A stretch of DNA of 64,000 nt from Cryomorphaceae bacterium (GCA_016124575.1 WGNM01000005.1:20118-84117); one strand, 5' to 3'; positions 27,374-57,768 are shown, counted from the stretch's first letter. Notes: generated by a model not told the origin, from the sequence alone. A program made the numbers and translations.

Positions 27374-27525
27374 GGGGGTTTTTATTTATATCTAGATTGT
27401 AAGCATCCAAGAATAAGTGAAATAGGTGTGGTTGGGGTTGTGTGTGCTTCGGTTTGCTTAAAAGATATTAGCATCCATCAGCGCACCCTAATATCGCACA
27501 TACTAATTTTATAGTGATGCGTTAT

Positions 27526-27543
27526 TGGTGTATATTTACACCA
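27526..27543. promoter_or_regulatory. Inverted repeat, candidate ParD operator
   Basis: TGGTGTA-tatt-TACACCA, ending 15 nt upstream of the parD ATG. Confidence 0.4.
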
Positions 27544-27557
27544 CAACACAAAACATC

Positions 27558-27797
27558 ATGAGAAGACAAAGTATTTCCTTTACTGAGCCAAATGATGAAT
27601 GGCTTAAAAGTCAAGTTGACAGTAAAGAATATTCAAGCAAGAGTGAATTAGTTAATGATTTAATTCGTCAGGCAAGAAGTCAACAAAAGCAAATTGATTT
27701 AATTCGATTGAAGTTAGATAAGGCTGAAAAATCGGGATTTACAACTGAATCCAAATCAGAAATTTTGAAGCAATCTAAAAGTATGCTTGATGAGTAA
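27558..27797 (+). CDS. parD: Type II antitoxin, ParD/CopG ribbon-helix-helix family
   Basis: MRRQSISFTEPNDEWLKSQVDSKEYSSKSELVNDLIRQA is a typical ParD (COG3609) N-terminus. It overlaps the toxin gene by 8 nt. Confidence 0.85.
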   Translation: MRRQSISFTEPNDEWLKSQVDSKEYSSKSELVNDLIRQARSQQKQIDLIRLKLDKAEKSGFTTESKSEILKQSKSMLDE

Positions 27798-28077
27798 ATA
27801 CAAATTAAGCACTGTTGCAAAGGAAGATTTGATCCGAATTCATCATTATGGCGTCAGGCAATTTGGAATGAAACAAGCAGACAGATACTTTGAGTCTTTC
27901 TTTGTCCACTTTGAACTTATTGCAAAGAATCCACAATCATTCGAATCTGTTGATTACATTAAACCAGGATATCGACGTTGTGTTTGTGGTGTAGATAGTA
28001 TATTTTTCAAAATGAATAAAGATGTAGTGGAAATAATGACGATTATTGGGAGACAAGATCTTAATCAATTGTTATGA
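27790..28077 (+). CDS. parE: Type II toxin, ParE family
   Basis: YKLSTVAKEDLIRIHHYGVRQFGMKQADRYFESFF..IAKNP ... GYRRCVCGVDSIFFKM..DVVEIMTIIGRQD follows the ParE pattern. Confidence 0.85.
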   Translation: MSKYKLSTVAKEDLIRIHHYGVRQFGMKQADRYFESFFVHFELIAKNPQSFESVDYIKPGYRRCVCGVDSIFFKMNKDVVEIMTIIGRQDLNQLL

Positions 28078-28213
28078 AAATTTATGGAGGCTAACCCCGA
28101 TAGAACTGCTGGCTGCTCCCCTTACTTCGAAAACGGATTTGATGAAAGAGAATAGTTTAACCCCGAATTTGGGTTTACATTAAAAAGTTCGTCACACCGC
28201 CATTCCCGAAACC

Positions 28214-28437
28214 GTCAACCTATCTAAACTCCCCCTTCCATTATTCATGTTTGAGTGTGCAGACAATCAAAAGCTTTTCTCAAACAATCCCCACCTTGGG
28301 TATCTTCAAGCAGACAATAATCGCTAGCAGCCAACCTCTTCATTTTCACAGCCTACAACCTCCGCTTGATATTCAATCTCCTACCACCACAAAAACTGAA
28401 AGCCTATTCAGCAGGCTTTTCATCGATTTCATGGGCA
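28214..28437 (+). repeat. Repeat family R2, copy 1 (block 1 at 28214-28248, block 2 at 28341-28437)
   Basis: Both blocks recur after the next TA pair (29230-29468). Block 2 ends in the hairpin AAAGCCT-attcagc-AGGCTTT. Confidence 0.85.
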
Positions 28438-28533
28438 TTTTTATCGTTTTTAGTTCCCGTTAAAGCACTTTTCGATAGTTTTTGGGGTGTATATGAAATT
28501 TTGTAAATTAGCAACAGAGCAAAAATTATATGT

Positions 28534-28764
28534 ATGACATCGACGGCGATAAAAAAACAAGTAGAAGATTACCTTCCCATGCTTTCAACTAAACAGCAGG
28601 TTCTTGTTCTTGAAATGATTAAAAGCCTATTGCACGTTGATAATGAGAGCAAACGAATTACCCGGAAACAATATAACAAAGAACTTGATGAAGCGGTCAA
28701 GAGAATCGAAAAAGGGAATTCAATTTCCCATAAAGACGCTCTGAAAGAAATTGCGAAATGGTAA
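28534..28764 (+). CDS. Putative antitoxin partner of a RelE/ParE-family toxin
   Basis: 76 aa, overlapping the toxin gene by 7 nt. The C-terminal ...KQYNKELDEAVKRIEKGNSISHKDALKEIAKW resembles Bacteroidota addiction-module antitoxins. Confidence 0.6.
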   Translation: MTSTAIKKQVEDYLPMLSTKQQVLVLEMIKSLLHVDNESKRITRKQYNKELDEAVKRIEKGNSISHKDALKEIAKW

Positions 28765-29072
28765 GGTCAAGTGCCTTTAGAATTGTTTGGGATACTGAAG
28801 CCTTAAATCAGTTTAAAGAGACCTTAGAATATTTAGAAGAGCAAAGCAGTCAAGCTCCACGAATTGTTAAAAAGGCAGTTCTTGATCAAATCGCACAAAT
28901 CAAAAAGAATCCTCTTATTTTTGAAGTCGATAAACTAAAATTACCTGAAGATAAGGACTTCAGGGCTTTTATTGTTTTCAACTACAGGATCACCTATCAA
29001 GTAAAAACTGACAAGGACCAAATTCGAATATTAAGATTCCGCCATACAAGCAGAGAACCACTTGGGTACTAA
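28758..29072 (+). CDS. Type II toxin, RelE/ParE superfamily
   Basis: 104 aa. FRAFIVFNYRITYQVKTDKDQIRILRFRHTSREP is the canonical RelE/ParE C-terminal pattern. Confidence 0.82.
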   Translation: MVRSSAFRIVWDTEALNQFKETLEYLEEQSSQAPRIVKKAVLDQIAQIKKNPLIFEVDKLKLPEDKDFRAFIVFNYRITYQVKTDKDQIRILRFRHTSREPLGY

Positions 29073-29229
29073 TAGGAATGAATTGTGGGCTCAGATAATA
29101 TGCTCTAATTATAAAACCCGCTTCACGCCAGCCTCACCTCTCTTATTCAAAAATATGTATATTATTGAATTACAGTTCTGCTCATCAAAGACAGTGTCAA
29201 AAACTCCCGCCCGCCGTGAAGCTGGAGAC

Positions 29230-29468
29230 GTCAACCTGTCTAAAAACCCCCATCCATACTTCATATTCGATAGTGTATAAAGTCAAATAGCCTTTGGTAT
29301 TAGATACACACATTGGTTATCTTTAGGTTTGAAATTCATTGCATGAAATGTTCGCCAGCCGATGCCCTCTCCATTTTCACAGCTTACAACCTCCGCCCGA
29401 TATTCAATCTCTTACCACCACAAAAACTAAAAGCCTCCCTAGTAGACTTTTTATCAAAATCATAGGCA
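29230..29468 (+). repeat. Repeat family R2, copy 2 (block 1 at 29230-29264, block 2 at 29372-29468)
   Basis: GTCAACCTGTCTAAAAACCCCCATCCATACTTCAT and CATTTTCACAGCTTACAACCTCCGCCCGATATTCAATCTCTTACCACCACAAAAACTAAAAGCCT... align with copy 1 with few substitutions. Confidence 0.85.
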
Positions 29469-29522: not shown

Positions 29523-31196
29523 TCAGTGCTTTATAAAAGCCAGGTTCAAATTGCCCTTACTTAATTGGATTATATAGGTTCCTGCAGACAAATCCACAAT
29601 TGAAATTGAAGCATTCATGCTGGTGGTTCCTTGGGCAACAATTTTACCCAAATGATCGATAATTCGGTAAGTGGAAAGTTCATTCTCACCGCTGAGGTGA
29701 ATGAAATCAGATGATGGGTTGGGGTAAATGTTTATGAGTGCTTGCGGTTCGAGGAAGTCATTCACCCCAATTGAATTACCGAAGGTGTATTGAGCCAAAT
29801 AGAGGTCGGTTAAACCGGCAGGAGCAGGTGCGGGATCATCAAGGTTTTCAGGAGCAAAATCAAAATTCTCATCGTAATTGCCTGTGATAATTACCTTGTC
29901 GCCAGATACCGCCATGCTTTTATTGCTGATAAAGTCATCTTCCCATCCGCCTACAACGAAAGAGTTAACATAGTCGAGCGACTGAGAGTACTTCACAACA
30001 AATAAATCACGACCACCATAGTTGATGTGATTGGCAAGCGGACCAGGCGAGAAAGTGCCATTGAAAGATCCGCAAACAATAATATCGTTTGAGGCGTTGC
30101 TGTGTGCACTTTTTGGTCTGCAATCGCCCCCAGCTTCCAATATATCTCCGTTAACGTAATCGCCTTCAGAAGTTAGTCTGACGAGAAAACCATTGTAAGA
30201 AAAGTTGGTTGGAATTATTTCTTCAGCAGCACTCGGGTCGAGGTCAATGTCTCCATCAAAATTCCCGACGATAAGAATGTCGCCATTGGTCAGCAGCTCG
30301 AGACCTTCACAAATTTCATTGAATTCTCCATGAAATCCTTTTGACCAAACAAGAATTCCAGTGGAATTGTATTTGGCTATATAGCCATCCTGTGCGTCTT
30401 GAGCGAGAAGAGTGGAGATAGTTCCAAATGGATCCAGGTCAATGGAAACACTGAATGATCCTACTATGACAATGTTATCGTCATCATCAACTTCAATATC
30501 TTGAATAAAACTCAGGCCATCATTTGGATTCACCCAGGCCCATATGTACTCGCCCGATGGAGAATACTTGGCCATAAAAGGACCGGAAGGATCGCCTACA
30601 AGGTTCTGTGTATTTGCACTTGGATCGAAATCACATACATTGGTAAGCGATCCGCCTACGATAATATTGCCTTCATTGTCAAGTGCTAGGGTAGATGCAT
30701 CAGCATTGCCTTCACCATTTATTGAAAAAGCAAAGTCGAATGTCCCGTCTGATAAGTAGTGGGCAATGAGCGCATCGCCTGAAGATCCGCTCGTGAATTC
30801 TGCGAGACCTTCTGGATTGGCATTGATGGTTCCCGTAAAATAGATCAATACGTAAACTCCATCATCCGCATCTACTGCTAAGTCTCTCACGTCGCCTTGT
30901 GTGCTCAATGGAAGGATGAATGCCCAAAGGTGATTGCCTTGTGAATCGTATTTCGAAATAAAAGGAGCGCTGAACAGGGAAACGTCGGATTGCAGATTTT
31001 CCCCAATCCCAGGGTCAAAATCTACATTGTCAGATCGCGATTCACCGCCCATATAAATGTTTCCTTCGCTATCACCTAAGGTGACGAAACCAGTTTCGGA
31101 ATTAAGACCGTTTACGGTAATCCCCCAGTCATTGGAATTTTGAGCTTGGCTTGCACAAACAATCAAGAGCAGCGAAAAGATTGAAAGAGATTTCAT
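29523..31196 (-). CDS. Secreted SBBP/beta-propeller-repeat protein with a T9SS type-A C-terminal sorting domain
   Basis: Signal peptide, repeated ...D..GN.Y..G.F.G..DFDP... units, and a C-terminal IYPNPSSDFIHL ... GTYIIQL sorting domain. It is the only minus-strand gene in the array. Confidence 0.85.
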   Translation of the reverse strand: MKSLSIFSLLLIVCASQAQNSNDWGITVNGLNSETGFVTLGDSEGNIYMGGESRSDNVDFDPGIGENLQSDVSLFSAPFISKYDSQGNHLWAFILPLSTQGDVRDLAVDADDGVYVLIYFTGTINANPEGLAEFTSGSSGDALIAHYLSDGTFDFAFSINGEGNADASTLALDNEGNIIVGGSLTNVCDFDPSANTQNLVGDPSGPFMAKYSPSGEYIWAWVNPNDGLSFIQDIEVDDDDNIVIVGSFSVSIDLDPFGTISTLLAQDAQDGYIAKYNSTGILVWSKGFHGEFNEICEGLELLTNGDILIVGNFDGDIDLDPSAAEEIIPTNFSYNGFLVRLTSEGDYVNGDILEAGGDCRPKSAHSNASNDIIVCGSFNGTFSPGPLANHINYGGRDLFVVKYSQSLDYVNSFVVGGWEDDFISNKSMAVSGDKVIITGNYDENFDFAPENLDDPAPAPAGLTDLYLAQYTFGNSIGVNDFLEPQALINIYPNPSSDFIHLSGENELSTYRIIDHLGKIVAQGTTSMNASISIVDLSAGTYIIQLSKGNLNLAFIKH

Positions 31197-31585
31197 GATT
31201 TGATTTGTTAACTAATTCATTTTTTGCAAGATAAGACTTTCTGCTCTTGATGCCAAATACGCCACTTTAGCAAGGCCCTGCATCACATGAGCCTTATTGT
31301 CGGTGCGTGAGTGAACTTCCCAGTGAGTGAATCCGATCTGATGAGGCGAAATTCCAGGTTTACGATTCAGACATAAATATCTTTCCTATCAACCCCTAAA
31401 TTGAAGGTGATTCCCTTGTTCCTACTTGGGCTTTTCAAATCCAAGTATACCGATCTTGTGTGCTAAACATTCGGTAGGTATTTCTTGGATCACATCCCAA
31501 TTGGGGTCTTCCCTGAAATTAGCTACTCTTAAAAAACCTTCTCAATATTTTGTTCCAAGGAAAATTGTGCTGATTCATCTGTAAT

Positions 31586-31639
31586 ACACCTTCGCAATCG
31601 CCCGGCATTCAAATCAATTGATTATTTTCATGGAAAATT
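31586..31639 (+). repeat. Repeat family R1, copy a
   Basis: The core TCAATTGATTATTTTCATGGAAAATT (31614-31639) is preceded by ACACCTTCGCAATCGCCC. Confidence 0.8.
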
Positions 31640-31740
31640 AGGGGAGTGATGGGGCATTAGACAGACATCCTTTGAGCGGAATAATGATACAATCTATTGA
31701 TTGTAAGTATTGTGTGGGCAGAAATTCGTAATTTTGTTTT

Positions 31741-31902
31741 ATGAGAACCAAACAAGAAATACTGATTTATTTGTCAGAGCTTAAAGAGCGAATAGCTCAC
31801 GAAATGCCAAAAGTTCGCAAAGAAATTCGCTTGTATGAGGAAAAGAAAGCAAATGGGCAACTAACTGAAAAACCAGTTTCTGGGCCTCAGTTTAATGTCT
31901 AA
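31741..31902 (+). CDS. Small ORF (53 aa) not in the supplied track; putative antitoxin/partner of the zeta-like ATPase
   Basis: ATG at 31741, translation MRTKQEILIYLSELKERIAHEMPKVRKEIRLYEEKKANGQLTEKPVSGPQFNV, stop at 31900-31902. It overlaps the downstream ATG (31895) by 8 nt. A TAATTTTG motif (31729-31736) lies just upstream. Confidence 0.5.
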   Translation: MRTKQEILIYLSELKERIAHEMPKVRKEIRLYEEKKANGQLTEKPVSGPQFNV

Positions 31903-32497
31903 ACCAGTATTGTTAGTTGTTGCTGGCTGCAATGGCTCGGGCAAATCTTCTTTCTCCAAGGCTTTCTCTCCAAATGATGTTGTTCCCTATGACTACGATT
32001 TAGTTTTTCTTGATTTTTACAAATCACTCATTGACAATGAACTGAGAGAGCGGATGGCTCACAATTTGTCGATTGAAGATTTACGAATCAGCATTGAATC
32101 TGCAAGATCCCAAGAGAAGAATTTCTGTTATGAAACAAATTTCAATTCTACTCCGCTATATTGGCCGACAGTTTTTAAGCGCGACGATTACCGTTTAGAG
32201 CTTGCTTTCTTCTGTTTAGATTCCATTGATAAAGCAAAAGAACGTGTTAGAATAAGAGTTGAGAATGGCGGACATTTTGTGCCTGACGCTGAAATTGAAA
32301 AGCGATATGTGTTAGGTTACAAGCATTTAAATGAATATTGGGAATTCTTTGATGCAGTGCACTTATTCGAAACCAGCGAATATGATTGCGAACCCAAACA
32401 CCTGCTGACAATTGAGCAGAATGTCCTCGTGATACTTGAAGATTTTCCGGACTATTTGATTTCTTTGATCCCGAATATTGCAGACAGATTGAAATAA
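31895..32497 (+). CDS. Zeta-toxin / COG4185-type P-loop ATPase
   Basis: 200 aa with Walker A VVAGCNGSGKSSF and the size and layout of the zeta-toxin/PezT-like 'predicted ABC-type ATPase' family. Confidence 0.7.
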   Translation: MSKPVLLVVAGCNGSGKSSFSKAFSPNDVVPYDYDLVFLDFYKSLIDNELRERMAHNLSIEDLRISIESARSQEKNFCYETNFNSTPLYWPTVFKRDDYRLELAFFCLDSIDKAKERVRIRVENGGHFVPDAEIEKRYVLGYKHLNEYWEFFDAVHLFETSEYDCEPKHLLTIEQNVLVILEDFPDYLISLIPNIADRLK

Positions 32498-32738: not shown

Positions 32739-32807
32739 CCAAATCACCTCCAAATCACCTCCAAATCACCCAGTGTTCAGTTCAATTGATTATTTTCAGT
32801 GAAAATT
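32739..32807 (+). repeat. Repeat family R1, copy b, including three tandem 11-bp units
   Basis: CCAAATCACCT x2 plus CCAAATCACCC (32739-32771), then the core TCAATTGATTATTTTCAGTGAAAATT (32782-32807). The core contains the palindromes TCAATTGA and ATTTTCA-g-TGAAAAT. Confidence 0.85.
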
Positions 32808-32865
32808 TTAACAGCAGGTAGATGATATAACAGATTGCCTTTGGCTGAAATTTAAAACAATACAA

Positions 32866-33408
32866 ATGAGTAAAAAATTAACACTAGTATTCTTTCTAAT
32901 TCAATCATTTACTATGAATGCTCAAGAAAAAGACCCATGGACAGTCTATATGACACCTTCTTCAGTTCATGAATTGTTTTCAAGGTACGAAGGGGAGTTT
33001 CAAATGGAAATGGAAATGAATGGACTAAAAGAACCTGTTCTAATTGGTTCTTCTCACAAAATGATCTTAGGTGGTCGATTCCTAGAATTAAAACAAAAAG
33101 GTAACATGATTGGTATGGAATACGAATCCATTTATACCGTTGGATTTAATACTATTGATAGCACCATTTCAATGACTACGATCACAAATATGGGGACAGG
33201 GACTTTAGCCCTTCACGGGGAATGGAACGAAAGCACAAAGACCGCAACACTTCATGGGAAACTAACTAATCCTGTTTCTAAACAAAGCATTTACGTTAGA
33301 CAGACTCTCGAGTTTGTCGATGACAATACGATTCTTATTCAAAGCTTTGACCATGAAGAAGATAAACAGGAAAAGAAAACTGTGGAATATAAATTTGTTA
33401 GACTATAG
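32866..33408 (+). CDS. Secreted DUF1579-like protein
   Basis: 180 aa with a signal peptide. The pattern ...HELFSRYEGEF... GGRFLEL ... G.W is reminiscent of DUF1579. Recognised from memory only. Confidence 0.45.
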   Translation: MSKKLTLVFFLIQSFTMNAQEKDPWTVYMTPSSVHELFSRYEGEFQMEMEMNGLKEPVLIGSSHKMILGGRFLELKQKGNMIGMEYESIYTVGFNTIDSTISMTTITNMGTGTLALHGEWNESTKTATLHGKLTNPVSKQSIYVRQTLEFVDDNTILIQSFDHEEDKQEKKTVEYKFVRL

Positions 33409-33580
33409 AAATACCCATTGCCTAATAGAGCCTAAAAAACATTGAGCAATCAGTGCTTTGATAGAGTTTTCTTTTTTTATCAAACTTTGTCTCGAAGGAC
33501 AATTTTGTAGCGTCAAAATGTCCTCCGTTTCAACCTAAGCTCGCTAGCTGCCATTTTAACTTAAACGTGCGACAAAATCA

Positions 33581-33594
33581 GCGATTTGTGTTAA
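33581..33594. promoter_or_regulatory. Direct repeat GCGATTTGTGTTAA, candidate AraC-family operator (copy 1, upstream of the AraC gene)
   Basis: The same 12-14-mer recurs at 34583-34597 upstream of the SDR genes. Confidence 0.3.
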
Positions 33595-33636
33595 TGAACT
33601 TCAGAAAGACAAAGTAATTTTGTGGAAAGAACACGC

Positions 33637-34545
33637 ATGAGCGAGGAGATTATTCATTCGAGATCAATTACTGAAATCAGGGCTGTCTTTGGTTTGGACA
33701 AGCCAACACACCCCTTAATTACAATACTTGATACACAAAAACTCGCTTATGGGGAAGAAACTGTTGGTAAACGATTCGCCTCTGATCTATACTGCATCGC
33801 TCTAAAGGATTCAAGTTGCGGAATTGAATACGGACGAAACTCGTATGACTTTGATGACGGAGTTTTAATTTTTACCGCACCTAAGCAGGTAATTACAGTG
33901 AAGAAACCCCAAGCACTGAATCAAATAAAAGGTTGGATGTTATATTTTCATCCCGACCTTTTTAGGAATACTCCCCTTGGTTCAAAAATTGATTCCTACA
34001 ATTTTTTTAACTACGAAGTGCATGAAGCTTTGCACCTGTCTATTCATGAACAAAATACCCTCAATCAAATTGTTCAGCTCATTCAAGATGAAATCAGAGA
34101 GCGAATAGATAATCATAGTCAGCAAGTATTGGTTTCGAATATTGAGTTGTTACTCAATTACAGCAAACGATTTTACGAAAGACAATTCAATACTCGCTCC
34201 GCGAGCCACACGGATATTGTTTCCAAAGTTGAAGTGCTGCTAAAAGAATATTATACAGCCAACAAGCTCATCGAAAAAGGACAACCCACTATCCAATATT
34301 TAGCAGAAAACTGCCATTTATCAGCAAGTTATTTGAGTGATCTTTTGAGCAAAGAAACAGGTCGTTCTGCTAAAGACCACATCAATGATTTTATTATCGA
34401 CAAAGCAAAACACTTGTTACTCGGATCTACCCATTCGATTAGTGAAATAGCTTATACTTTAGGCTTCAATTACCCCCATTATTTTGGTAGGCTGTTCAAG
34501 CTCAAAACAGGAAAAACACCCCAAGAATACAGGCAGTTGAATTAA
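33637..34545 (+). CDS. AraC-family transcriptional regulator
   Basis: C-terminal double HTH (IQYLAENCHLSASYLSDLLSKETG ... ISEIAYTLGFNYPHYFGRLFKLKTGKTPQEYR). Confidence 0.9.
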   Translation: MSEEIIHSRSITEIRAVFGLDKPTHPLITILDTQKLAYGEETVGKRFASDLYCIALKDSSCGIEYGRNSYDFDDGVLIFTAPKQVITVKKPQALNQIKGWMLYFHPDLFRNTPLGSKIDSYNFFNYEVHEALHLSIHEQNTLNQIVQLIQDEIRERIDNHSQQVLVSNIELLLNYSKRFYERQFNTRSASHTDIVSKVEVLLKEYYTANKLIEKGQPTIQYLAENCHLSASYLSDLLSKETGRSAKDHINDFIIDKAKHLLLGSTHSISEIAYTLGFNYPHYFGRLFKLKTGKTPQEYRQLN

Positions 34546-34550
34546 ATCGA

Positions 34551-34580
34551 AGGAAGCAAATGAAGCTTCCTTTCGCTTTT
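34551..34580 (+). terminator. Rho-independent terminator after the AraC gene
   Basis: Stem AGGAAGC/GCTTCCT with a 7-nt loop, followed by TTCGCTTTTC. Confidence 0.6.
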
Positions 34581-34582
34581 CT

Positions 34583-34597
34583 GCGATTTGTGTTTAA
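34583..34597. promoter_or_regulatory. Direct repeat GCGATTTGTGTTTAA (copy 2, upstream of the SDR pair)
   Basis: Matches 33581-33594 apart from one extra T. Confidence 0.3.
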
Positions 34598-34670
34598 CCT
34601 TTCTTTTTTCGTGTTACTCCGCTCACTCGTTCAGTCGGATATTTGATTTCATCAAAGCATTATAAAAAAG

Positions 34671-35546
34671 ATGGAACATAAAATTTTAGTAACAGGTGCA
34701 AGTGGAGCTTTTGGAAGTTTAACTTGTATTCAATTAGCGGAAAACGGTCATAAAGTGGTCGGGACATTGCGTTCATTAAAAGGGAAAAACGAAGCCATCG
34801 CAAATGAGCTAAAAGCAAAAGGTGTAGCATTGGTTGAAATGGATGTGACCAATGAAGAAAGTGTAAATGCAGGAGTAAATTCAGCCATAGAACAGATGGA
34901 TGGATTAGATACTGTTTTCAACAATGCAGGAATTGGAGCTAATGGAATTCTTGAATGCTTTACCGTAGGTGATATCCAAAAAATGTTTGACGTAAATGTT
35001 TTTGGAGTTCAACGAGTATTGAGAGCTGTTTTACCTTTTTTGAGACAACAAGGAAGGGGAACGATCATTCACACTTCAAGTTGTATCGGTAGAGTAACCA
35101 CACCATTCTTGGCTTCATACTCGGCTTCAAAATACGCTTTAGAGTCTTTGGCGGAAGGCTACCGTGCAGAACTTTCAGGATTTGGAATTGAATCGTGTAT
35201 AATAGAACCAGGCGGATATCCAACGGGTTTTATGAGTGGAATGATAACGCCAAGCGATAACGAAAGGATGAAGCAGTATGGCGAAATGGCAAGCCTTCCT
35301 GAAACCTCAATTGATGGATACGTTGCTTATGTGGAATCAATCCCCGAACAAAGACCTGAGCGAGTTGCTGAAGCCTTAGTCAATCTGGTAAATACACCTT
35401 TTGGTGAAAAACCCTTTAGAACCGTTGTTGATTTTTCTGGGTTAAAACAACCAATAGAAAACTATAATCAACTGTTGAACGAGACTACAAAAGCAATTTA
35501 CACTGCAAATGGTGTGGCTAATTTACTAAACCTAAACAAAGACTAA
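34671..35546 (+). CDS. SDR-family oxidoreductase
   Basis: Contains TGASGAFG, NNAG and the catalytic YSASK. Confidence 0.88.
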   Translation: MEHKILVTGASGAFGSLTCIQLAENGHKVVGTLRSLKGKNEAIANELKAKGVALVEMDVTNEESVNAGVNSAIEQMDGLDTVFNNAGIGANGILECFTVGDIQKMFDVNVFGVQRVLRAVLPFLRQQGRGTIIHTSSCIGRVTTPFLASYSASKYALESLAEGYRAELSGFGIESCIIEPGGYPTGFMSGMITPSDNERMKQYGEMASLPETSIDGYVAYVESIPEQRPERVAEALVNLVNTPFGEKPFRTVVDFSGLKQPIENYNQLLNETTKAIYTANGVANLLNLNKD

Positions 35547-35548
35547 AA

Positions 35549-36361: not shown

Positions 36362-36480
36362 AAACGGTACCTAGCTGCAAAGCTTCCTTGCGGCTCGCAA
36401 CCCCCACCAAAAACGCATGCTGAATGAAAACAATCGCTGCAGCGAACTATGAGGTTTTAATAAGTAATTTTTGTATTGCA

Positions 36481-36510: not shown

Positions 36511-36568
36511 ACTGTTTTTGGAGATGCAACAGCACTGTTTGCGTTTGAAAGTATATAGGGTGCTTTTT

Positions 36569-36632
36569 CACCTCCAAATCACCGTTTTAATCACCCTACC
36601 TTCATCTCAATTGATCATTTTCATTGCAAAAA
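36569..36632 (+). repeat. Repeat family R1, copy c
   Basis: CACCTCCAAATCACC..TTAATCACCC, then the core TCAATTGATCATTTTCATTGCAAAAA (36607-36632). Confidence 0.75.
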
Positions 36633-43793: not shown

Positions 43794-43810
43794 ATAAGAA
43801 AGCACTTCAA

Positions 43811-47830: not shown

Positions 47831-47851
47831 AATCTGCTGCTTTTCTAAGCT

Positions 47852-47888
47852 CTTCTTCTTCGTGCGCGCGGCACGGATGTAGATGTCC
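47852..47888. repeat. Repeat family R3, copy a
   Basis: CTTCTTCTTCGTGCGCGCGGCACGGATGT followed by AGATGTCC. It matches 52541-52569 at 28 of 29 positions. Confidence 0.8.
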
Positions 47889-48586: not shown

Positions 48587-48715
48587 TGCTGAGATGGTGT
48601 TTTTCTGAGGCTTTAAAATGCGAACGTTCCCAGCTAGTTTCTATCAAGTTGCAGTCTTTCTTTATAGCTTTGAGGGATATATATTGGAACAAATCGTTGT
48701 AATTGCCCACCGCAC

Positions 48716-49894: not shown

Positions 49895-50015
49895 TGTCCG
49901 ATTAAATGCGGTTAAAACATAAAGATAAGTAACTGATATTTAATATGATAATTCAATTATGTCGTTAGGGTTTTCAGCGTTTCAGCTGTAGTACATATCA
50001 AATGATCTTCAACCG

Positions 50016-52508
50016 ATGTCTGCAAAATACGCCCTACTAATTTGCATGCTTCTTATTTTTACCCAATCTACTGTCTGTCAGGAGGTTTCGGTGTTGAACT
50101 ACTCGGTAGATAGTAACGGGCAGGTTTTGCTTGAAGTAGATGCAGATTTGGGCAGGTATTATCTTTTGCAGGTGCGGCATCATCCAGATTCGCTTTTTGA
50201 GCAATTTACGTCTATGACTTTGGGGCAGGAAGGCACCACCACGCTTACAGAACCCTTGCGAGCTTATCCCGAAAATCATTACCGTGTGCTTTCCTTTCCC
50301 CTGAGCAATCCTACCGATTCCGACAACGATGGAATCGATGATTTAGTTGAATTTCAAATGGTGCCTGGCACCGCACCGTTCAATGCAGCACCATCAGTTT
50401 TGTTGGAACAGGGAATGGTCATCTTGAATGAGGAGTCAGACTTTCATACAGTGGCTATCACAGAGAACAACACTCCATGGGTGGGGTACTTAGACGATGT
50501 AGAATTTACCAAATTCATCATCGAAGATTTCGATACGAATTCCCCTAAATTATACTTCATGAATTGCAATACGTTTCCGCTTCACTCGTCGTTTGCAAGT
50601 TTCATGGGAATTGATCACACAGCACCATCGGTGAAGAAAGGACAGATCATGTACAATCCATCGGCGTTAGCCAACAACGGAACACTTGGTGCGTATACAT
50701 TCAACTTTAGCAGCAATGGATTGGTAGAAGAGTTTGATGTAATTCAGCGTACACATGAACTGTTGGCTGCCAATATGCCCTTTGTCATCAACAACTTATC
50801 GTACCTGCTTACTGAGAATGATGAAGACTATTATTTCGAACATGAGACGCTTTTCTTTGAATCACGCGTTCCGGTCCTCTTCGATTCAGACGCCTACGCA
50901 GGAATAAACTATTGGGGTTTAAATCAGGCCGAGGGCTATGGCTTTTTCCGCCTCATGGCGCCTGGAGAAGTTCCAAATCCAAAAGACATTGTACTCTATG
51001 AGTCTATTCCCAACGTTTTGCCTCATGTCGGTGGAATACTCACTTCCATCATTCAAACACCCCTGTCGCATGTCAATTTAAGAGCTATTCAAGACCATAT
51101 ACCGAATGCTTATATCCGCGATCCGCTTGAGGAAGAAGAGATTTCGGAACTTATTGGACATTACATTTACTTCAAGGCAGGACAAAGCAGTTATGAGATC
51201 CGCGAGGCTACACTTGAAGAGGTGAATGCCTGGTACGAGAGCATCCGTCCGAACAATGAGCAAATACCATTGCTTGATTTATCGCACACATCCATTCTGC
51301 CGCTTGATGAAATCAACTTCAACATGCACGGTGGATTTGGAGCGAAAACGGCGAATGTGGCTACTATGCGGACGTTCGGATTTGCCCCAGGGACCATTCC
51401 GAATGGATTTGGAATCCCATTTTACTACTACCAGCAGTTTATGGAATACAATGCGTTTTTCGATGAGGTTGATGAAATGCTAGTTGATACACTTTTTTAT
51501 GCAGATCGAAACATTCGTGCATACCGATTGGCGCAGTTTCGGAATCAAATTGAAGCAGGTGAAATGCCTCAATGGATGCTAGATTCTTTATCGCAAATGC
51601 ACAGCTCTTTTCCTCTTGGAACCTCTGTTCGCTGTCGATCAAGCACCAACAATGAAGATCTGCCTGAGTTTAGCGGTGCAGGACTATATGATTCCAAAAC
51701 ACATCACCCCAATGAAGGACATATATCCAAAACTATCAAAGAAATTTTCGCGAGTTTGTGGAATTTACGGGCTTTCGATGAACGAGAGTTTTACCGCATC
51801 AACCACTATCAATCATCCATGGGTGTCTTGTGTCACCCTAACTTCGAAGATGAACTCGTGAATGGGGTAGGGGTGAGCACCGATCCCTTTTATACCACTG
51901 AAAGCACGTTTTACTTGAATTCGCAGCTTGGTGAAGATCTCATAACCAATCCTGGAACTACCTTCCCCGAAGAAATGCTCGTCAACCGCTATGCAAGCGA
52001 GGTTGGCGACTATGCCATCATCCAGTATTCCAGTCTTATTGAAGAAGATACCTTGCTCATGAGCTTCATTCAACTTGATCTCCTGCGCCAGTATTTGTCG
52101 AGAATACATGATGAATTTGCAGTGCTATACAACGCTCAAAACAACAGCACTTTCGCCATGGATATTGAGTTTAAAATCACAAGTGAAAACAAGTTAATCA
52201 TCAAACAAGCACGGCCATGGGTCACGTTCAAACCTTCACCTACAGTAATTTTCCCTGTGAATGATTGCGGTGCGTATCTATTTCCCAATCCAGCAACAGA
52301 CATACTCAACATTGTCTCCCAAACAAGCGAGAAAACAACTATCCGGATTTACAATCTCAACGGCGTCCTCATGCGCGAGCAAATAGCCAATTCGCTCAAT
52401 ATCATGCCCTTTCAAATAGATATCCGCTCTTTCCCTCAGGGAGTTTACTTCGTTACCGGCTTATCGTCACAAGGTCACTGCAACACGATGAAATTCATCA
52501 AGCAATAA
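50016..52508 (+). CDS. Secreted PEP/pyruvate-binding (PPDK_N ATP-grasp) domain protein with a T9SS type-A sorting domain
   Basis: Signal peptide and about 430 aa of unassigned N-terminal region. PPDK_N-type blocks follow (FGAKTANVATM, RSSTNNEDLPEFSGAGLYDS, ASLWNLRAF, MGVLCHPNF...NGVGVSTDP, LIIKQARPW). The C-terminus reads LFPNPATDILNI...GVYFVTG. Confidence 0.75.
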   Translation: MSAKYALLICMLLIFTQSTVCQEVSVLNYSVDSNGQVLLEVDADLGRYYLLQVRHHPDSLFEQFTSMTLGQEGTTTLTEPLRAYPENHYRVLSFPLSNPTDSDNDGIDDLVEFQMVPGTAPFNAAPSVLLEQGMVILNEESDFHTVAITENNTPWVGYLDDVEFTKFIIEDFDTNSPKLYFMNCNTFPLHSSFASFMGIDHTAPSVKKGQIMYNPSALANNGTLGAYTFNFSSNGLVEEFDVIQRTHELLAANMPFVINNLSYLLTENDEDYYFEHETLFFESRVPVLFDSDAYAGINYWGLNQAEGYGFFRLMAPGEVPNPKDIVLYESIPNVLPHVGGILTSIIQTPLSHVNLRAIQDHIPNAYIRDPLEEEEISELIGHYIYFKAGQSSYEIREATLEEVNAWYESIRPNNEQIPLLDLSHTSILPLDEINFNMHGGFGAKTANVATMRTFGFAPGTIPNGFGIPFYYYQQFMEYNAFFDEVDEMLVDTLFYADRNIRAYRLAQFRNQIEAGEMPQWMLDSLSQMHSSFPLGTSVRCRSSTNNEDLPEFSGAGLYDSKTHHPNEGHISKTIKEIFASLWNLRAFDEREFYRINHYQSSMGVLCHPNFEDELVNGVGVSTDPFYTTESTFYLNSQLGEDLITNPGTTFPEEMLVNRYASEVGDYAIIQYSSLIEEDTLLMSFIQLDLLRQYLSRIHDEFAVLYNAQNNSTFAMDIEFKITSENKLIIKQARPWVTFKPSPTVIFPVNDCGAYLFPNPATDILNIVSQTSEKTTIRIYNLNGVLMREQIANSLNIMPFQIDIRSFPQGVYFVTGLSSQGHCNTMKFIKQ

Positions 52509-52540: not shown

Positions 52541-52613
52541 CTTCTTCTTCGTGCGCACGGCACGGATGTGGAAGATTTCTTTCATCTGGCACGAGAACCA
52601 GCAATAGATGTCC
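52541..52613. repeat. Repeat family R3, copy b
   Basis: CTTCTTCTTCGTGCGCACGGCACGGATGT (52541-52569), with the AGATGTCC word displaced 36 nt downstream (52606-52613). Confidence 0.8.
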
Positions 52614-52888: not shown

Positions 52889-53515
52889 ATGGAAATGAAG
52901 AAGGATAGGGAGATTGGAATAAACGCTATTTACCAAATGAGACAAATTTTGATTGTAAGCTTGTTGCTGTCGTCCATTTCAATGATCGGACAAGTTGTAT
53001 TGAGCAATCCAGATTACTATGTCTGCAACAGCGGATTGGATACCCTGTTTTTGAAAAATCTTGATTTTAGAAAAAACCAACCTTTTGGGTTTAGGCCAGC
53101 AAATACAACCAGCATAGTGGATACCATTCAACTAGATGGGAAGGGGGCGAAAGAAATTGTTTTTGAAAGAACCTACAGTGGAGTATCAGAAATAATTATG
53201 CAAGCGCATCAGTCGAAGGAGGAGACCATCATTCACAAATATGAAATATGGAATATCGATACCAAAACCCTCTTGTTTGAGTCCGTTGCATCTTATCACT
53301 TTCGCTTTGAGTATTGGAGCCTTTTGTCCGATAATTTTCCAGAAAACAATGGTTGGACAACCGGCTTTTGTGGGTATGACTATCCCTTTTCCATTGATAG
53401 CACGGGGAGAATTGAAATAGGCAAAGCGACAACAATTAGCACACAAGACGGTTGCACTCCCGACAAAGAAGAAGGCTTCTACATATTTACAGATGGACAA
53501 TACCGGAAAGAGTAG
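52889..53515 (+). CDS. Hypothetical secreted/anchored protein
   Basis: ORF with a hydrophobic N-terminus (MRQILIVSLLLSSISMIGQ, alternative start 52937). No family recognised. Confidence 0.4.
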   Translation: MEMKKDREIGINAIYQMRQILIVSLLLSSISMIGQVVLSNPDYYVCNSGLDTLFLKNLDFRKNQPFGFRPANTTSIVDTIQLDGKGAKEIVFERTYSGVSEIIMQAHQSKEETIIHKYEIWNIDTKTLLFESVASYHFRFEYWSLLSDNFPENNGWTTGFCGYDYPFSIDSTGRIEIGKATTISTQDGCTPDKEEGFYIFTDGQYRKE

Positions 53516-53800
53516 CAATAGCATTTTTTGACATTGGTTTTGCGCTTGTCGAGATGATTAAATCAATTCATAGATTCGTTCTTCAATAGTGTTTTGTTGG
53601 GTGAGGTTTTTGTGTTTTGAACACCACGACCCTTCCGCCTCCTTCACCCAGACTAGATGCTTGTACTATATCGTTTCAGGTTTTTTGATTTTTTTTTTTT
53701 ATTTTGAGATTGTTGGGGTTGGCGAGAGGTGGTGGAAGCAGAGCAGAAGAGAAGCATTTCTAGCTTTTAGGCAGTGATGGGGTACTTTTATAAGACGCAT

Positions 53801-53817
53801 TGATTGCAGTGCAATCA
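53801..53817. promoter_or_regulatory. Perfect palindrome TGATTGCA-g-TGCAATCA upstream of a sigma-factor gene
   Basis: 8-bp arms, located 35 nt upstream of the ATG at 53852. Confidence 0.35.
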
Positions 53818-53851
53818 GAGAAAATCCACTCAATTATAAAATTGAATAAAA

Positions 53852-54649
53852 ATGACCAACGAACAATTTACGACCGAGTTTGAAAAGACGAGACCGCAAT
53901 TAAAATCATACATCTTGCGGATAACAGCAAGTGTTCAAGATTCTGAGGACATTGTTCAGGATACATATGTAAAGGCTTCCATGAAAATCGAAGAATTTCG
54001 TGGCGAAAGTTCGCTTAGAACATGGATTTTCGCAATTGCATCGAATCTTGCGAAGGACAATCTCCGAGTGAAAAAACGTTGGACTGAAGATGTAACCGAC
54101 ATTTGTCGAGAGAAGGCATTGTCGAATCCGAATTATTTTCCAGAAATAATGCAGATTCAACAATCATCGGATCATGCAAACTTCGAGGTGAAAGAACATA
54201 TCAACTTTTGTCTGACATGCATTTCAAAATCGCTACCTCTCGAGCAACAGATCTGCATTCTCTTAAAGGAAGTTCACCAATTCAAAGTTTCAGAAATTAC
54301 CGAGATATTGGACATTACCGAAGCGATGGTAAAATATTATCTGCATACGGCAAGGCAGAAAATGGTGAGTATTTTTGAAGGTCGCTGTGCCTTAATCAAT
54401 AAAAATGGGACATGTCACCAATGCTCGGAACTGAATGGTATTTTTAATCCCAAACAACGTTTCGAAGAAGAGAAGAATAAAATTGAATTTGCAAAGAAAG
54501 CTGACCACCCAGACAGACAGTACTTATTGGATTTGCGACTTGAAATAGTTCGAGGTATAGATCCCTTCAACTCAGTTGGTTCGGATCTGCAACTGCACCA
54601 TTTAGAGCACAATAGAAAGGTAATGGAAAATTTTCTGGATAAAAAATGA
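53852..54649 (+). CDS. ECF-type sigma factor with a Cys-containing C-terminal extension
   Basis: Region 2 (EDIVQDTYVKA, RTWIFAIASNLAKD) and region 4 (VSEITEILDITEAMVKYYLHTARQKM). An extension of about 95 aa follows, with C-x9-C-x2-C (CALINKNGTCHQC); there is also an inter-region CLTC. Confidence 0.82.
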   Translation: MTNEQFTTEFEKTRPQLKSYILRITASVQDSEDIVQDTYVKASMKIEEFRGESSLRTWIFAIASNLAKDNLRVKKRWTEDVTDICREKALSNPNYFPEIMQIQQSSDHANFEVKEHINFCLTCISKSLPLEQQICILLKEVHQFKVSEITEILDITEAMVKYYLHTARQKMVSIFEGRCALINKNGTCHQCSELNGIFNPKQRFEEEKNKIEFAKKADHPDRQYLLDLRLEIVRGIDPFNSVGSDLQLHHLEHNRKVMENFLDKK

Positions 54650-54714
54650 CCAATTCCCTATCGTTTTGTTCGCTCAAAACGTCAAAAGTATACGAACAAA
54701 ACAAAAGCACTATT

Positions 54715-55182
54715 ATGACAAACGTAGCGTCTAACGGAAAAGCCATAACAACGAAGAAAACCTTTAGCCGAGAAACAGCGATCAGCATCGATATTCAAGC
54801 TGACAAGCACATCATTTGGGCATTGTTGTCTAATGCTAGCGACTACCCTCGGTGGAATTCAACAATAATTTCAATTGAGGGGAATATCGAAAAAGGCGAG
54901 AAAATCAGGCTTAAATCTACCCTTGACCCCAAACGGGTTTTTAAACTTTCGGTAAAGGAGTTTGAACCTGGCAGTCGATTGGTATGGGGAGATGCGATGG
55001 GAAAGCGGATTTATACCCTTCAAACAAACAGCATTGGCACAACCAACTTTTCAATGAACGAAAAAATCGGAGGTCCGATGTTTCCTTTGTTTTCTAAATT
55101 GATACCACCATTTGACCAGTCGTTCGAAAAGTTCGCAAACGACCTAAAATCTGAAGCAGAATCTATTCAAAACTCTAAATAA
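54715..55182 (+). CDS. SRPBCC-family protein
   Basis: ISIDIQADKHIIWALLSNASDYPRWNS... shows the helix-grip pattern. The ORF is open from 54646 (ATGA overlap with the sigma gene), so the start is uncertain. Confidence 0.7.
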   Translation: MTNVASNGKAITTKKTFSRETAISIDIQADKHIIWALLSNASDYPRWNSTIISIEGNIEKGEKIRLKSTLDPKRVFKLSVKEFEPGSRLVWGDAMGKRIYTLQTNSIGTTNFSMNEKIGGPMFPLFSKLIPPFDQSFEKFANDLKSEAESIQNSK

Positions 55183-55189
55183 GAACGCG

Positions 55190-55603
55190 ATGAGTTACAA
55201 AGAAACAATCGGAACAAAGGAAAATCCCTTGGTACTAAAAACACCGCCTCTGTCGTCGGAATATACAATGCACGTAGACGAAAAAGACGGAAAGCAAGTT
55301 TTGGTATGTACGGTTGGAAAAACCGTTTTATTATACGACATAAATTGTCTAGATGATTTACACCAAATGCTAAAGAAACAGGGCGATTGGGTAGAGCTTG
55401 GCAGTGCAGACGAACAAAAACCTGCCAAGGTTGGAACAGTTGAGGCTTGGGGTCGTTCGGAGAGTAATCCAGTTGGGGGTTGGTACGGACTTAAAAAAGG
55501 ACTTCGTGGCAGATTTGGGATGTATATTCCACCATTAATGGAACATCTTGGACTTGCAGAAGTAACTCACCAGAAGCAAGGGAACGCCATGAAAGCGAAG
55601 TAA
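55190..55603 (+). CDS. Hypothetical conserved-looking protein
   Basis: 137-aa ORF starting 7 nt after the SRPBCC gene. No family assigned confidently (C-terminal GGWYGLKKGLRGRFGMYIPPLMEHLGLAEV). Confidence 0.45.
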   Translation: MSYKETIGTKENPLVLKTPPLSSEYTMHVDEKDGKQVLVCTVGKTVLLYDINCLDDLHQMLKKQGDWVELGSADEQKPAKVGTVEAWGRSESNPVGGWYGLKKGLRGRFGMYIPPLMEHLGLAEVTHQKQGNAMKAK

Positions 55604-56044
55604 GCACCAAACTTCAAGGTGCATTAGTTTGAGTGATGTCTGTAACAATTTGAAACGTAATGAGTATTTTTTTTGTCTATGATCACTCATTTTCGAGAAC
55701 ATTCACAGCTCCGAAACACCGTAAAAATACCCGTCGTGATTCTAAATCCTTTCTTTATTTTGGTGGTGAGAACATCACGACGCCTCAGAATTGAATATCA
55801 ACTTCAACCTCAGCAATGATTTTGAAGATTTGAATGATGATTGGTACTTCGTTTCACCATCAGAAACCAAGATTGAACTGATTGATGTGAGCGGCGGAAA
55901 TGGTGGGACAGATTATTTGACGTTTGTGAAGAATTAGTCGTTGAGATTTCAATAGAACTAGGAAAGATGCGCCAAAATATCGGTGGACTATTTTGTTTGT
56001 TTATCTTTTTATTGTGAGATTGGCATACATTAACATTAAATGCC

Positions 56045-56986
56045 ATGAAAAATCTAGTTTTCCTTCTATTCTGCTCCTTCACCACAGTCATACATGCTCA
56101 AATTGCAGATATGTTTGATACATTGGATTTTGAATCGCCGTATGAGTACATATTACTTAATAGCGATAGTGCGAACTTATGGCAAATAGGTACTCCGCAG
56201 AAGACTTGGTTGAATGACGCAACATCTGGTGTAAATGGGATTATAACCGATACTGTTGCACTTTATCCTAGCAACAATCACTCGTATTTTGACCTTCAAA
56301 TAGGCTATTTTAATAATCCAGTATTTGACTTCAATTGTTTCGTGATGTTCTCGCATAAAATGGATTCCGATACATTGCATGATGGGGGTTACCTCACAAC
56401 TTCTATGGATGGCGGTGAGACATGGAATGATGTTTTTACTCCCTTAGACTTTGGAGCCTATCAGTTAGATAATATCGATCATGAAGGAAATTTCTATTAT
56501 CAGAATTACGATACACTTTGCAATGGTGAGTCCGGGTTTTCAGGGAGACGAAATTGGGAAACGACTTTTATAGGTTGGACGGTGTATTTGGTTGAGCCAC
56601 CTACGTTAAACCCTCCCGTTATCGACACTCTTTTGGTTCGTTTTAATTTTATTTCAGATAGCCTTGATAACCAAAGAGAGGGTTGGCTGATTGACGATAT
56701 CGTACTTTGTACTATTCGTAATTCATCAATAGGTGAAAATGAACCTTTTGTAAAGTCTGTTTACCCCAACCCATCCATTTCAGGTGTCACGATTGCTTTT
56801 CTTGCCATTGAACCAGATGTCGCCCTGGAAGTGTATTCGAATGATGGTCGCCTTGTATTCACAGAAGAGTACAATGCTGTCCAGCAAATCGAATATCCCA
56901 ATGCATTTTTGGTTCCGGGCGTCTATCAGTTTGTGGTCAAAACTAAGAATGCCAGCGAAGTGCACCAAGTGGTGGTGCAGCGGTGA
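56045..56986 (+). CDS. Secreted protein with a T9SS type-A sorting domain
   Basis: Signal peptide (LLFCSFTTVIHAQ) and a C-terminal VYPNPSISGVTIAF...GVYQFVV. Confidence 0.75.
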   Translation: MKNLVFLLFCSFTTVIHAQIADMFDTLDFESPYEYILLNSDSANLWQIGTPQKTWLNDATSGVNGIITDTVALYPSNNHSYFDLQIGYFNNPVFDFNCFVMFSHKMDSDTLHDGGYLTTSMDGGETWNDVFTPLDFGAYQLDNIDHEGNFYYQNYDTLCNGESGFSGRRNWETTFIGWTVYLVEPPTLNPPVIDTLLVRFNFISDSLDNQREGWLIDDIVLCTIRNSSIGENEPFVKSVYPNPSISGVTIAFLAIEPDVALEVYSNDGRLVFTEEYNAVQQIEYPNAFLVPGVYQFVVKTKNASEVHQVVVQR

Positions 56987-57047
56987 GACACAATAATTGG
57001 CTGTTTTTTTACGTGAAATGCTAAGCTTTAAGCGTAGATTTCATCTC

Positions 57048-57668
57048 ATGAAAGTGACTCATACCTGTAAAATTGCATTCCTTATTTCGTTTTGCCTATC
57101 GGTGACGCAACTTCTTCAAGCCCAAGATTGGTTGGCTTGGAGTTTTCAATACGATTTCAAGATTGAGAGCAACAAACGCGGTGAGTACCTTTTTGAAAGC
57201 ATGGAGCTCTCCATCAATGAGCCTTTTCGTTCCGATTGGCTGATAGGTAGTGTCTTGAACTATGACGATAACACATCTGTATATTCGTTGATCTTGTCTT
57301 ATGGATGCGTGAGTTGCGGCTTCAGCGGCATGCACTTTCCGCCAGGTGTTTTTTTACGTCTATACCTGTTCGATTCCTTTGGAAAGCAACACTTCTCCAT
57401 TGTTGTTCCTATCGTGTTTGATACCATTTCTGATCCCGATAGGTTTCAGAAGATGGACACAAATGCTCAGCGAATTAACAATGGAGCGATTTATTTTGAC
57501 TTGAAAACAATCGTGTTCGAAGATTTCATGTTTTTCAATCCGAACTATATAAGATACGAAGGTATCCGCATCAACTCAGATGGCGAAGTTCACCTCTACA
57601 CTCCCGGAGAATTTGATTTTCCTCGGCCAGAGAAGCTGCGGGTGGTGGGTTTGAATGATGCACATTAA
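57048..57668 (+). CDS. Hypothetical secreted protein
   Basis: Signal peptide MKVTHTCKIAFLISFCLSVTQLLQAQ. No family recognised. Confidence 0.4.
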   Translation: MKVTHTCKIAFLISFCLSVTQLLQAQDWLAWSFQYDFKIESNKRGEYLFESMELSINEPFRSDWLIGSVLNYDDNTSVYSLILSYGCVSCGFSGMHFPPGVFLRLYLFDSFGKQHFSIVVPIVFDTISDPDRFQKMDTNAQRINNGAIYFDLKTIVFEDFMFFNPNYIRYEGIRINSDGEVHLYTPGEFDFPRPEKLRVVGLNDAH

Positions 57669-57768
57669 AGGGTACATCAGACTAGATTCGGATGAATGAA
57701 AGGCAAGAGGATGGGGTTTCAATCTATCTAGTCTGCTTTGAAGCCGTGAGTCCATCGCAAACTAAGCG

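Follow-up and report, generated by a model that had tools for sequence, protein, structure and literature searches.

We analysed a 64-kb stretch of Cryomorphaceae bacterium DNA (GCA_016124575.1, WGNM01000005.1:20118-84117; the window) and focused on the interval at 27374-57768, which separates bshC from ruvX. The left core anchor, bshC, lies on the + strand at 25829-27373 (Pfam Rossmann-like_BshC, 3.8e-99), and the right core anchor, ruvX, on the − strand at 57769-58176, where it was assigned by open reading frame (ORF) and Pfam analysis, with dapD next to it, and by synteny in relatives. To the right of ruvX the core flank consists of dapD, a YebC-family gene, GT9, GSCFA and dnaN. We found 33 genes in the interval, 32 of which were on the + strand, and the ORF listing, Pfam and the collection gene calls agreed on this. 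The sole − strand gene encodes a 557-aa cargo protein of the type IX secretion system (T9SS) at 29523-31196 (Por_Secre_tail, 1.7e-10). A first-pass annotation had described the co-orientation and the core genes on both sides, both of which were reproduced, and had suggested that the interval may be an integron-like or otherwise recombination-built cassette array. Our data point instead to a region that is probably a chromosomal horizontal-transfer hotspot (plasticity zone) without a mobility gene, in an uncultured Cryomorphaceae-like member of the Flavobacteriales.

The gene content was resolved into a series of modules, all on the + strand apart from the gene named above. Nearest to bshC are two toxin-antitoxin (TA) pairs of the ParE type: TA1 (27558-28077) comprises a CopG/ParD-like antitoxin and a ParE toxin with a G+C content at third codon positions (GC3) of 0.23-0.27, and TA2 is a unit at 28481-29106 in which the gene pair proper (28534-29072) encodes a 76-aa antitoxin and ParE. 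Both were identified by Pfam, and TA2 also by homologous contigs. The two ParE proteins are unrelated to each other, and so are the two antitoxins. Beyond the 557-aa T9SS gene, a 53-aa ORF precedes a zeta-toxin-like P-loop protein with a Walker A motif (31741-32497); its Zeta_toxin match (E=7.9e-4) was below the Pfam cut-off, so that of the three TA pairs previously listed two stand and this one is a weak, putative third. It is followed by a DUF1579 gene of low GC3 (32914-33408, Pfam) and by an AraC-SDR-SDR unit (33540-36373) that was delimited by homologous units in other contigs. A segment of native-like GC3 (36891-41766) then holds a Reg_prop protein, a di-haem cytochrome c peroxidase, an AHSA1/SRPBCC pseudogene (39498-39967) whose frameshift had been noticed earlier and was confirmed, a VOC gene and a second Reg_prop protein. 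The two Reg_prop paralogues (36891-37964 and 40678-41766; 63% nucleotide identity over 200 nt) enclose the peroxidase, the pseudogene and the VOC gene, and the pair may be an old duplication framing this segment.

Further to the right we found a YciI-SRPBCC-DUF2461-TfoX-ECF sigma operon, the sigma factor having a DUF6596 domain (41863-45043; Pfam and homologous operons), a 218-aa orphan secreted protein with a bestrophin-family channel (45480-47286; ORF and Pfam), and a conserved HAD/LNS2 phosphatase gene (47354-47830; Pfam and synteny in relatives). In a public Logan gene call the latter is replaced by a 218-aa antisense ORF at 47267-47923 on the − strand. The remainder comprises a glyoxalase/VOC gene with two T9SS cargo genes of 392 aa and 820-830 aa (48131-52508, Pfam), and, at 52937-57668, an orphan secreted protein, an ECF sigma-SRPBCC-DUF6855 unit (53852-55603) and a T9SS cargo gene with another orphan secreted protein (56045-57668). 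Pfam thus supported DUF1579, DUF2461, TfoX, YciI, HAD, two sigma factors (at 43811 and 53852) and four proteins with a T9SS C-terminal domain (at 29523, 48716, 50046 and 56045), all as first listed, while the SRPBCC and VOC genes were reduced from four to three and from three to two. The orphan proteins had no match in NCBIfam, PHROGs or PDB sequence searches. Three of them carry signal-like N-terminal segments, and for this reason they are unlikely to be recombinases. We also considered an assembly chimera, which is unlikely; the gene order of the window is found on a Logan contig beginning near 24.4 kb (run SRR10063240), although that contig was probably built from the same reads as the metagenome-assembled genome (MAG) and hence gives no independent confirmation of gene order.

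The interval differed from its surroundings in density and composition. Its coding fraction was 78% compared to 95% in each flank, with about 6.0 kb of spacer DNA distributed over 23 spacers, and its G+C content was 40.4% compared to 45.6% in the left and 47.9% in the right flank. Mean GC3 was 0.394 in the interval and 0.497 in the flanks (Mann-Whitney p=1.5e-5). The drop in G+C is mosaic rather than general as first implied. We found that 16 of the 33 genes fell below the flank GC3 mean minus 2 sd, and 15 of these sit in three blocks at 27.5-29.1, 31.7-36.4 and 41.9-45.0 kb, the other being a lone DUF6855 gene (55190-55603). The other interval genes looked native, and about half of the total, at 36.9-41.8 and 45.5-52.5 kb, were native-like in GC3. 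With respect to orientation, 73% of the flank genes are also on the + strand, and G exceeds C on this strand over most of the window; against this bias the co-orientation of the interval had a binomial p of 5e-4 when counted per gene and of about 0.04 per transcription unit, the latter being a hand estimate.

All window proteins were compared by tblastn with 162 bshC loci from genomes and metagenomes, and ORF maps were drawn afterwards. The collections contained no strain-level relative: one BshC homologue was 80% and one 83% identical (the latter partial), both on contigs of 2-4 kb, and the others were at most 49% identical. In a Flavobacteriales MAG (L001) the order was a sigma factor, two genes, CHU_C, bshC, HAD (75% identical to 47354-47830) and ruvX on the − strand. 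Another locus (L153) read bshC, ruvX(−), dapD, GT9 and GSCFA, with zero genes between bshC and ruvX. In a third (L035) bshC abutted an inverted GT9-dapD|ruvX block, and in Parvicella tangerina (L166) the HAD gene lay only 4 nt from bshC. The flanking core genes were therefore adjacent or nearly so in these four loci. Furthermore, the HAD protein was 75-89% conserved over Flavobacteriales and Saprospiraceae. HAD, previously counted among the accessory genes, is thus a conserved core gene that adjoins bshC in relatives, and for this reason the interval consists of two insertion zones, one of about 20 kb between bshC and HAD and one of about 10 kb between HAD and ruvX.

The closer relatives revealed that the content of the site varies. 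A genus-level contig (L163, 78% nucleotide identity) matched the window in blastn over 24452-27419, ended 46 nt after the bshC stop and then differed, and on this alignment the left breakpoint is at 27419. In a second genus-level contig (L165, HAD 89% identical at the amino acid level) only 47366-47830 matched the window, and about 200 nt upstream and 1.5 kb downstream of HAD were unrelated to anything in it. A 49% relative (L164) carried nine left-flank genes in the same order and a beta-lactamase gene after bshC. Directly outside bshC and HAD, these three short contigs therefore depart from the window in their accessory content. Gene-for-gene conservation of the bshC-ruvX interval in relatives, which had been named beforehand as the observation that would speak against an accessory, recombination-built region, was not the case: bshC, HAD and ruvX-dapD are neighbours elsewhere, the interval is an insertion relative to those genomes, and near relatives hold other genes there.

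We then traced individual modules in other genomes. Cluster look-ups at 90% identity with 30 array proteins returned near-identical relatives for the TA2 antitoxin and YciI only. The TA2 unit was also present in two metagenome contigs (L168 and L169) with 77-83% nucleotide identity, an antitoxin of 93% amino acid identity and a partly deleted ParE, in another context downstream of an ARPP-1 gene. The YciI-to-sigma operon was recovered with all five genes at equal lengths in contigs L173-L178 (G+C 0.33-0.34; 78% nucleotide identity over 41863-45035), and as a three-gene version in Pricia (L171); in every context the homology had the same two end points and began 59 nt upstream of YciI. YciI was 90-93% and its sigma factor 80-83% identical to the proteins of Pricia and of the contigs with 33-34% G+C. 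A neighbour with a YCII domain has been described as characteristic of sigma factors of the ECF42 group (PMC8999054). The AraC-SDR-SDR unit was found with identical gene lengths in 9 further contigs, being 78-80% identical in nucleotide sequence in Pareuzebyella (L179) and the marine contigs L181-L188, where its end points are unchanged. Its homology always spanned 33540-36373, starting 97 nt ahead of AraC and ending 12 nt beyond the final stop codon. AraC homologues were 84-90% identical at the amino acid level in Cyclobacteriaceae, Cytophagales, Chitinophagales, Lewinella, Aureispira, Roseivirga and Flavobacteriaceae, whereas BshC was merely 36-42% identical to that of the same groups.

Three modules thus recur elsewhere with sharp end points, and the content of the interval is in part of foreign origin, both by composition and by its homologues in distant taxa. 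The G+C content of the contigs bearing the recurring units matches that of the low-GC blocks in the window. Judged by these alignments, the recurring units are operon-size, carry their own regulator and upstream region, and were acquired en bloc. A search of PLSDB plasmids gave partial matches to SDR or sigma genes only, and no whole AraC or YciI unit. These results bear on differential loss, according to which the 30 kb would be ancestral and deleted in the compared streamlined marine and freshwater lineages. The native-like GC3 of about half of the genes would fit such a history, as would the fact that complete syntenies come from distant relatives only, yet three blocks have foreign composition and their closest homologues lie in other families or classes at identities far above those of core genes. 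In addition, near relatives show different sequence, not a deletion, beside bshC and HAD, and the pseudogenes together with 22% non-coding DNA suggest flux. We regard differential loss as very unlikely.

Several observations concern the recurring units in their other contexts. In the window the DUF2461 gene (42788-43510) encodes 240 aa and overlaps TfoX (43446-43793) by 65 nt, while in L173-L178 it is shorter (216 aa) and 10 nt separate its end from TfoX; the window copy seems to have lost its original stop. In L174 a 381-aa tyrosine integrase gene (674-1819) immediately precedes the YciI-to-sigma operon in the same orientation. The nearly identical contig L173 (1-43) departs from L174 at position 1890 of the latter, 42 nt from the end of L173, which suggests a recombination junction about 240 nt before YciI. 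The AraC unit occupies 7910-10751 in L179 and 88-2933 in L181. Short inverted motifs of the TAGCT type were seen at its ends, GTTAGCTACC ... GGTAGCTAAC in L181 and, in the window, CTAGCTGC at each end, and these resemble the terminal repeats of a non-autonomous mobile cassette. An identical 12 nt, part of GCGATTTGTGTT, occurs at 33581-33592 and 34583-34594, upstream of AraC and of the first SDR gene. L179 and L181 keep it ahead of AraC as well, and it is probably an operator of the AraC regulator.

In the marine low-GC contigs L181-L187 the AraC unit lies in an island at a tmRNA gene (tmRNA 6861-7256 on the − strand in L181; L187, 1273-1417). At its left end this island carries a copy of the final 14 nt of the tmRNA gene, GTGGAGCCGGAGGG. 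L186 contains three copies of the tmRNA 3′ end (107-200, 637-730 and 1801-1894), each preceding a co-oriented module. The unit was 100% identical in nucleotide sequence in L184, L186 and L187, yet its upstream neighbours differed. A 131-nt imperfect palindrome that follows the unit in L181-L187 was examined as an attC-like site and rejected, as it is not kept with the unit in L179 or the window and L181-L187 contain no second site of this kind. In every retrieved context (L179, 1-13000; L173; L184; L186) the adjoining 5-12 heterogeneous genes share the strand of the promiscuous unit.

Self-BLAST of the interval revealed exactly three intergenic repeat families, all with copies on the + strand. 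Repeat A (about 270 nt) has two non-coding copies, A1 at 28182-28437 and A2 at 29199-29468, which are 69% identical overall and 92% in the core; repeat B (70-120 nt) has three, B1 at 31567-31693, B2 at 32744-32861 and B3 at 36560-36630; and repeat C (32 nt) has two that are 94% identical, C1 at 47852-47883, beginning 22 nt past the HAD stop, and C2 at 52541-52572. B1 includes the 12-nt palindrome AATCAATTGATT. B1 forms the left and B3 the right edge of the second low-GC3 block. As direct repeats they bracket modules in the arrangements A1-[TA2]-A2, B1-[zeta-like pair]-B2-[DUF1579 and AraC unit]-B3 and C1-[VOC and two T9SS genes]-C2. The earlier description of three families bracketing modules therefore held for the families and for some modules. 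In an all-against-all spacer BLAST, however, repeats were present in 7 of the 23 spacers and absent from 16, and the four modules with flanking direct repeats draw on three unrelated families while other modules have none. Repeat A is not simply part of a duplicated gene pair, since the ParE pairs preceding A1 and A2 are unrelated. Translated in all six frames, repeat A gave no conserved ORF. Folding of A, B and C gave z-scores from −1.8 to +1.5 on either strand and no stable structure, and the three families show no relationship among themselves or to the outer borders of the interval, and none to a tRNA or tmRNA. No short direct repeats were found at these borders or around the 41.9-45.0 kb block, and the core sequences of A and B had no match in IMG/VR or in any fetched locus except the window's own contig. 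The left flank contains a separate 89-nt internal repeat (12602-12690 and 13010-13096, 71% identity) in the gene for a 776-aa LVIVD-repeat protein.

The bracketing fits the pattern that may be expected from Campbell-type insertion at a short homologous or att sequence, and A, B and C may be insertion scars. The corresponding alternative is serial site-specific accretion, in which small integrase-less elements would enter one by one in a fixed orientation through a recombinase encoded elsewhere, duplicating the att site with each insertion so that A, B and C are att scars; on this view the region would behave as tandem islands at tRNA or tmRNA genes do, or as cis-mobilisable elements do. The four modules with flanking repeats agree with this, as do the positions of B1 and B3 at block edges and the correspondence of the TA2 segment in L168/L169 to the A1-A2 interval. 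A precedent exists in the tmRNA 3′-end copies that bound the AraC unit island, three of them in L186. The tyrosine integrase directly upstream of the YciI operon in L174 also agrees with it. The families, however, share neither sequence with one another nor similarity to tRNA, tmRNA or the outer borders, and they occupy a minority of spacers. The TA2 segment in L168/L169 carries no A-like sequence, and the AraC and YciI units occur elsewhere without a B-like or other shared flank. Moreover, the third low-GC block is not flanked by a repeat, and 64 kb contained no recombinase. Accretion by a trans-acting recombinase is therefore an unlikely, minority explanation; it may hold for some modules inside an otherwise ordinary hotspot.

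A further reading is that operon-size units lacking an integrase were captured one after another, always in the same orientation, at short core sites and with a recombinase supplied from another locus. A, B and C, together with the TAGCT-type inverted ends of the AraC-SDR-SDR unit, would serve as these core sites. We consider this quite unlikely. If true, it would represent a Bacteroidota accretion mechanism related to the one that built the tmRNA-linked, co-oriented array of L186 and the integrase-headed array of L174, and the AraC-SDR-SDR and YciI-sigma units would be true mobile cassettes crossing Bacteroidota classes.

The same interval was also searched for integron features. The attC model requires imperfect R''-L''...L'-R' hairpins of 57-141 nt, with at least two within 4 kb on one strand, and a cluster of attC sites lacking an integrase (CALIN) is defined by at least two attC sites (PMC4889954). 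A strict RYYYAAC...GTTRRRY scan at 50-150 nt on both strands (128 kb) gave 8 pairs compared to 15 in shuffled sequence, none of them with complementary arms, and a relaxed search for AAC...GTT, in which the arms were aligned with gaps, gave one match with a score of 13.5, while shuffles reached 14.5. This match, a weak 146-nt imperfect palindrome at 27292-27437, spans the bshC stop and the left breakpoint, and its score is thus within the shuffle range. Short-range inverted repeats and terminator-like and promoter-like consensus sites were not enriched. The pattern scans thus found no two attC sites, and 64 kb contained no intI. No ORF of the window belonged to a recombinase or transposase family, PF00589 included; ARAGORN found no tRNA or tmRNA within it; and Rfam, at gathering thresholds and at E≤1, returned nothing relevant, only a chance CRISPR-DR32 match inside a sigma gene. 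Likewise, the recurring units are not single promoterless ORFs with their own site; they are operons of 3-5 genes with a regulator and 59-97 nt of upstream sequence.

rAID-1 arrays of the Bacteroidales require a 5′ XerD-like recombinase (10.1101/471110), and here bshC stands in that position. Such arrays also have two or more downstream genes in one orientation at a G+C content of at most 41%, which holds here (32 of 33 on +; 40.4%), and a repetitive motif in most intergenic regions, which does not. The features of a classical genomic island were also lacking, namely an integrase, a tRNA or tmRNA, an Rfam match and a repeat at the outer borders. A degenerate CALIN or rAID-1-like array whose sites have decayed or are non-canonical would account for the co-orientation, low G+C, TA pairs, small orphan genes and long spacers, traits that Bacteroidales rAID-1 arrays have (10.1101/471110). 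It is nonetheless contradicted by R''...R' pairs below the shuffle count, none with paired arms, by a relaxed match at shuffle level, by the unremarkable folding of the repeats, by bshC in place of a 5′-end integrase, by modules that are mostly multi-gene and in several cases have their own regulators, and by immunity-type families that were not found. Such an origin is extremely unlikely. The first-pass interpretation was thus supported in part. The region is accessory, modular and built by recombination, but an integron, CALIN or array with common boundary sites was not upheld: attC-like sites and a recombinase are absent from 64 kb, and the spacers have no shared boundary element.

We therefore return to the hotspot as the favoured explanation, for which the following course is proposed. 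The ancestral order would have been bshC-HAD-ruvX(−)-dapD, to which about 20 kb would have been added on the bshC side of HAD and about 10 kb on its ruvX side. Self-contained modules would have arrived piecemeal: two unrelated ParE-type TA pairs, the zeta-like pair, DUF1579 and AraC-SDR-SDR, and further the operon running from YciI to the ECF42-like sigma factor, the sigma-SRPBCC-DUF6855 unit and T9SS cargo genes. The DNA may have entered through double homologous recombination within the conserved flanks, on elements that have since lost their mobility genes or depended on such genes acting in trans, or along both routes. The A1-[TA2]-A2, B1-B2-B3 and C1-C2 direct repeats would be insertion or duplication scars, co-orientation may be due to selection for agreement with the flanking genes and with the G-rich strand, presumed to be the leading one, and the TA pairs may help to retain the region. 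Since several modules have their own regulator and upstream region, they are expected to act as independent stress, xenobiotic or surface-protein units and not as one-promoter cassettes.

Several points weigh against this explanation. The window covers 64 kb of a 229-kb contig, and a trans-acting recombinase or more copies of A, B and C may lie beyond it. Co-orientation of 32 of 33 genes exceeds the 73% bias of the flanks and is not strictly predicted by a plain hotspot model, and three independent families of module-flanking direct repeats are more than pure homologous recombination needs. The close relatives that are informative are represented only by contig pieces of 2-4 kb, which may come from different organisms and give no gene-by-gene map of gain and loss; the complete syntenies come only from distant relatives (BshC 38-42%).

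The findings carry a wider implication. Co-orientation, TA pairs, small orphan genes and repeats together are insufficient to call an integron-like array, and synteny with relatives combined with per-module tracing yields a simpler answer. The flexible genes of this uncultured lineage collect to the left and right of a conserved HAD gene, next to ruvX. Two operons, AraC-SDR-SDR (84-90% amino acid identity across classes) and YciI/ECF-sigma, are widely exchanged in Bacteroidota and are candidate transferable stress or xenobiotic modules. If the minority accretion account were true, the repeats would mark a new trans-mobilised cassette mechanism.

Finally, we compared the region with known systems. 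Integron arrays and CALINs (Cury et al. 2016, PMC4889954) likewise hold co-oriented accessory genes, TA pairs and small or orphan genes, and CALINs also have no integrase; the present region differs in that no attC was found, its units are 0.6-3.2 kb and mostly multi-gene, several having regulators of their own, and its spacers share no structure or sequence. With rAID-1 (Ross et al. 2019, 10.1101/471110) it shares the Bacteroidota host, co-orientation, a G+C content of at most 41% and some repetitive intergenic sequence, but it lacks the 5′ XerD-like recombinase and immunity-gene content and has repeats in a minority of spacers. It resembles tandem tRNA/tmRNA islands and cis-mobilisable elements in having modules of one orientation between direct repeats, and the same AraC-SDR-SDR unit occurs in the L181-L187 island; unlike these islands, the window has no tRNA, tmRNA or integrase, and its repeats form three unrelated families that are not derived from an RNA gene. 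The likeness to ECF42 (PMC8999054), a 410-aa sigma factor with a long C-terminal extension (DUF6596) and a YciI gene ahead of it, concerns one 3.2-kb module only, and its membership of the group is putative.

According to a survey of chromosomal hotspots, 27% have neither integrases nor transposases (Oliveira, Touchon, Cury & Rocha 2017, PMC5635113), and the core genes flanking hotspots, often repair genes, show an excess of homologous recombination, with rapid turnover of the content (PMC5635113). Hotspots in that survey were defined from many genomes of one species, whereas the present comparison draws on fragments of near relatives; neither the strong co-orientation nor the three flanking repeat families are typical of hotspots in general. 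Like the mobility-gene-free hotspots (PMC5635113), however, the bshC-ruvX region is flanked by core genes, one of them the recombination and repair gene ruvX, varies in content among relatives, has foreign composition and encodes no integrase or transposase. Hotspots of this kind are already known, and the region is probably a further example of them rather than a new type of array.

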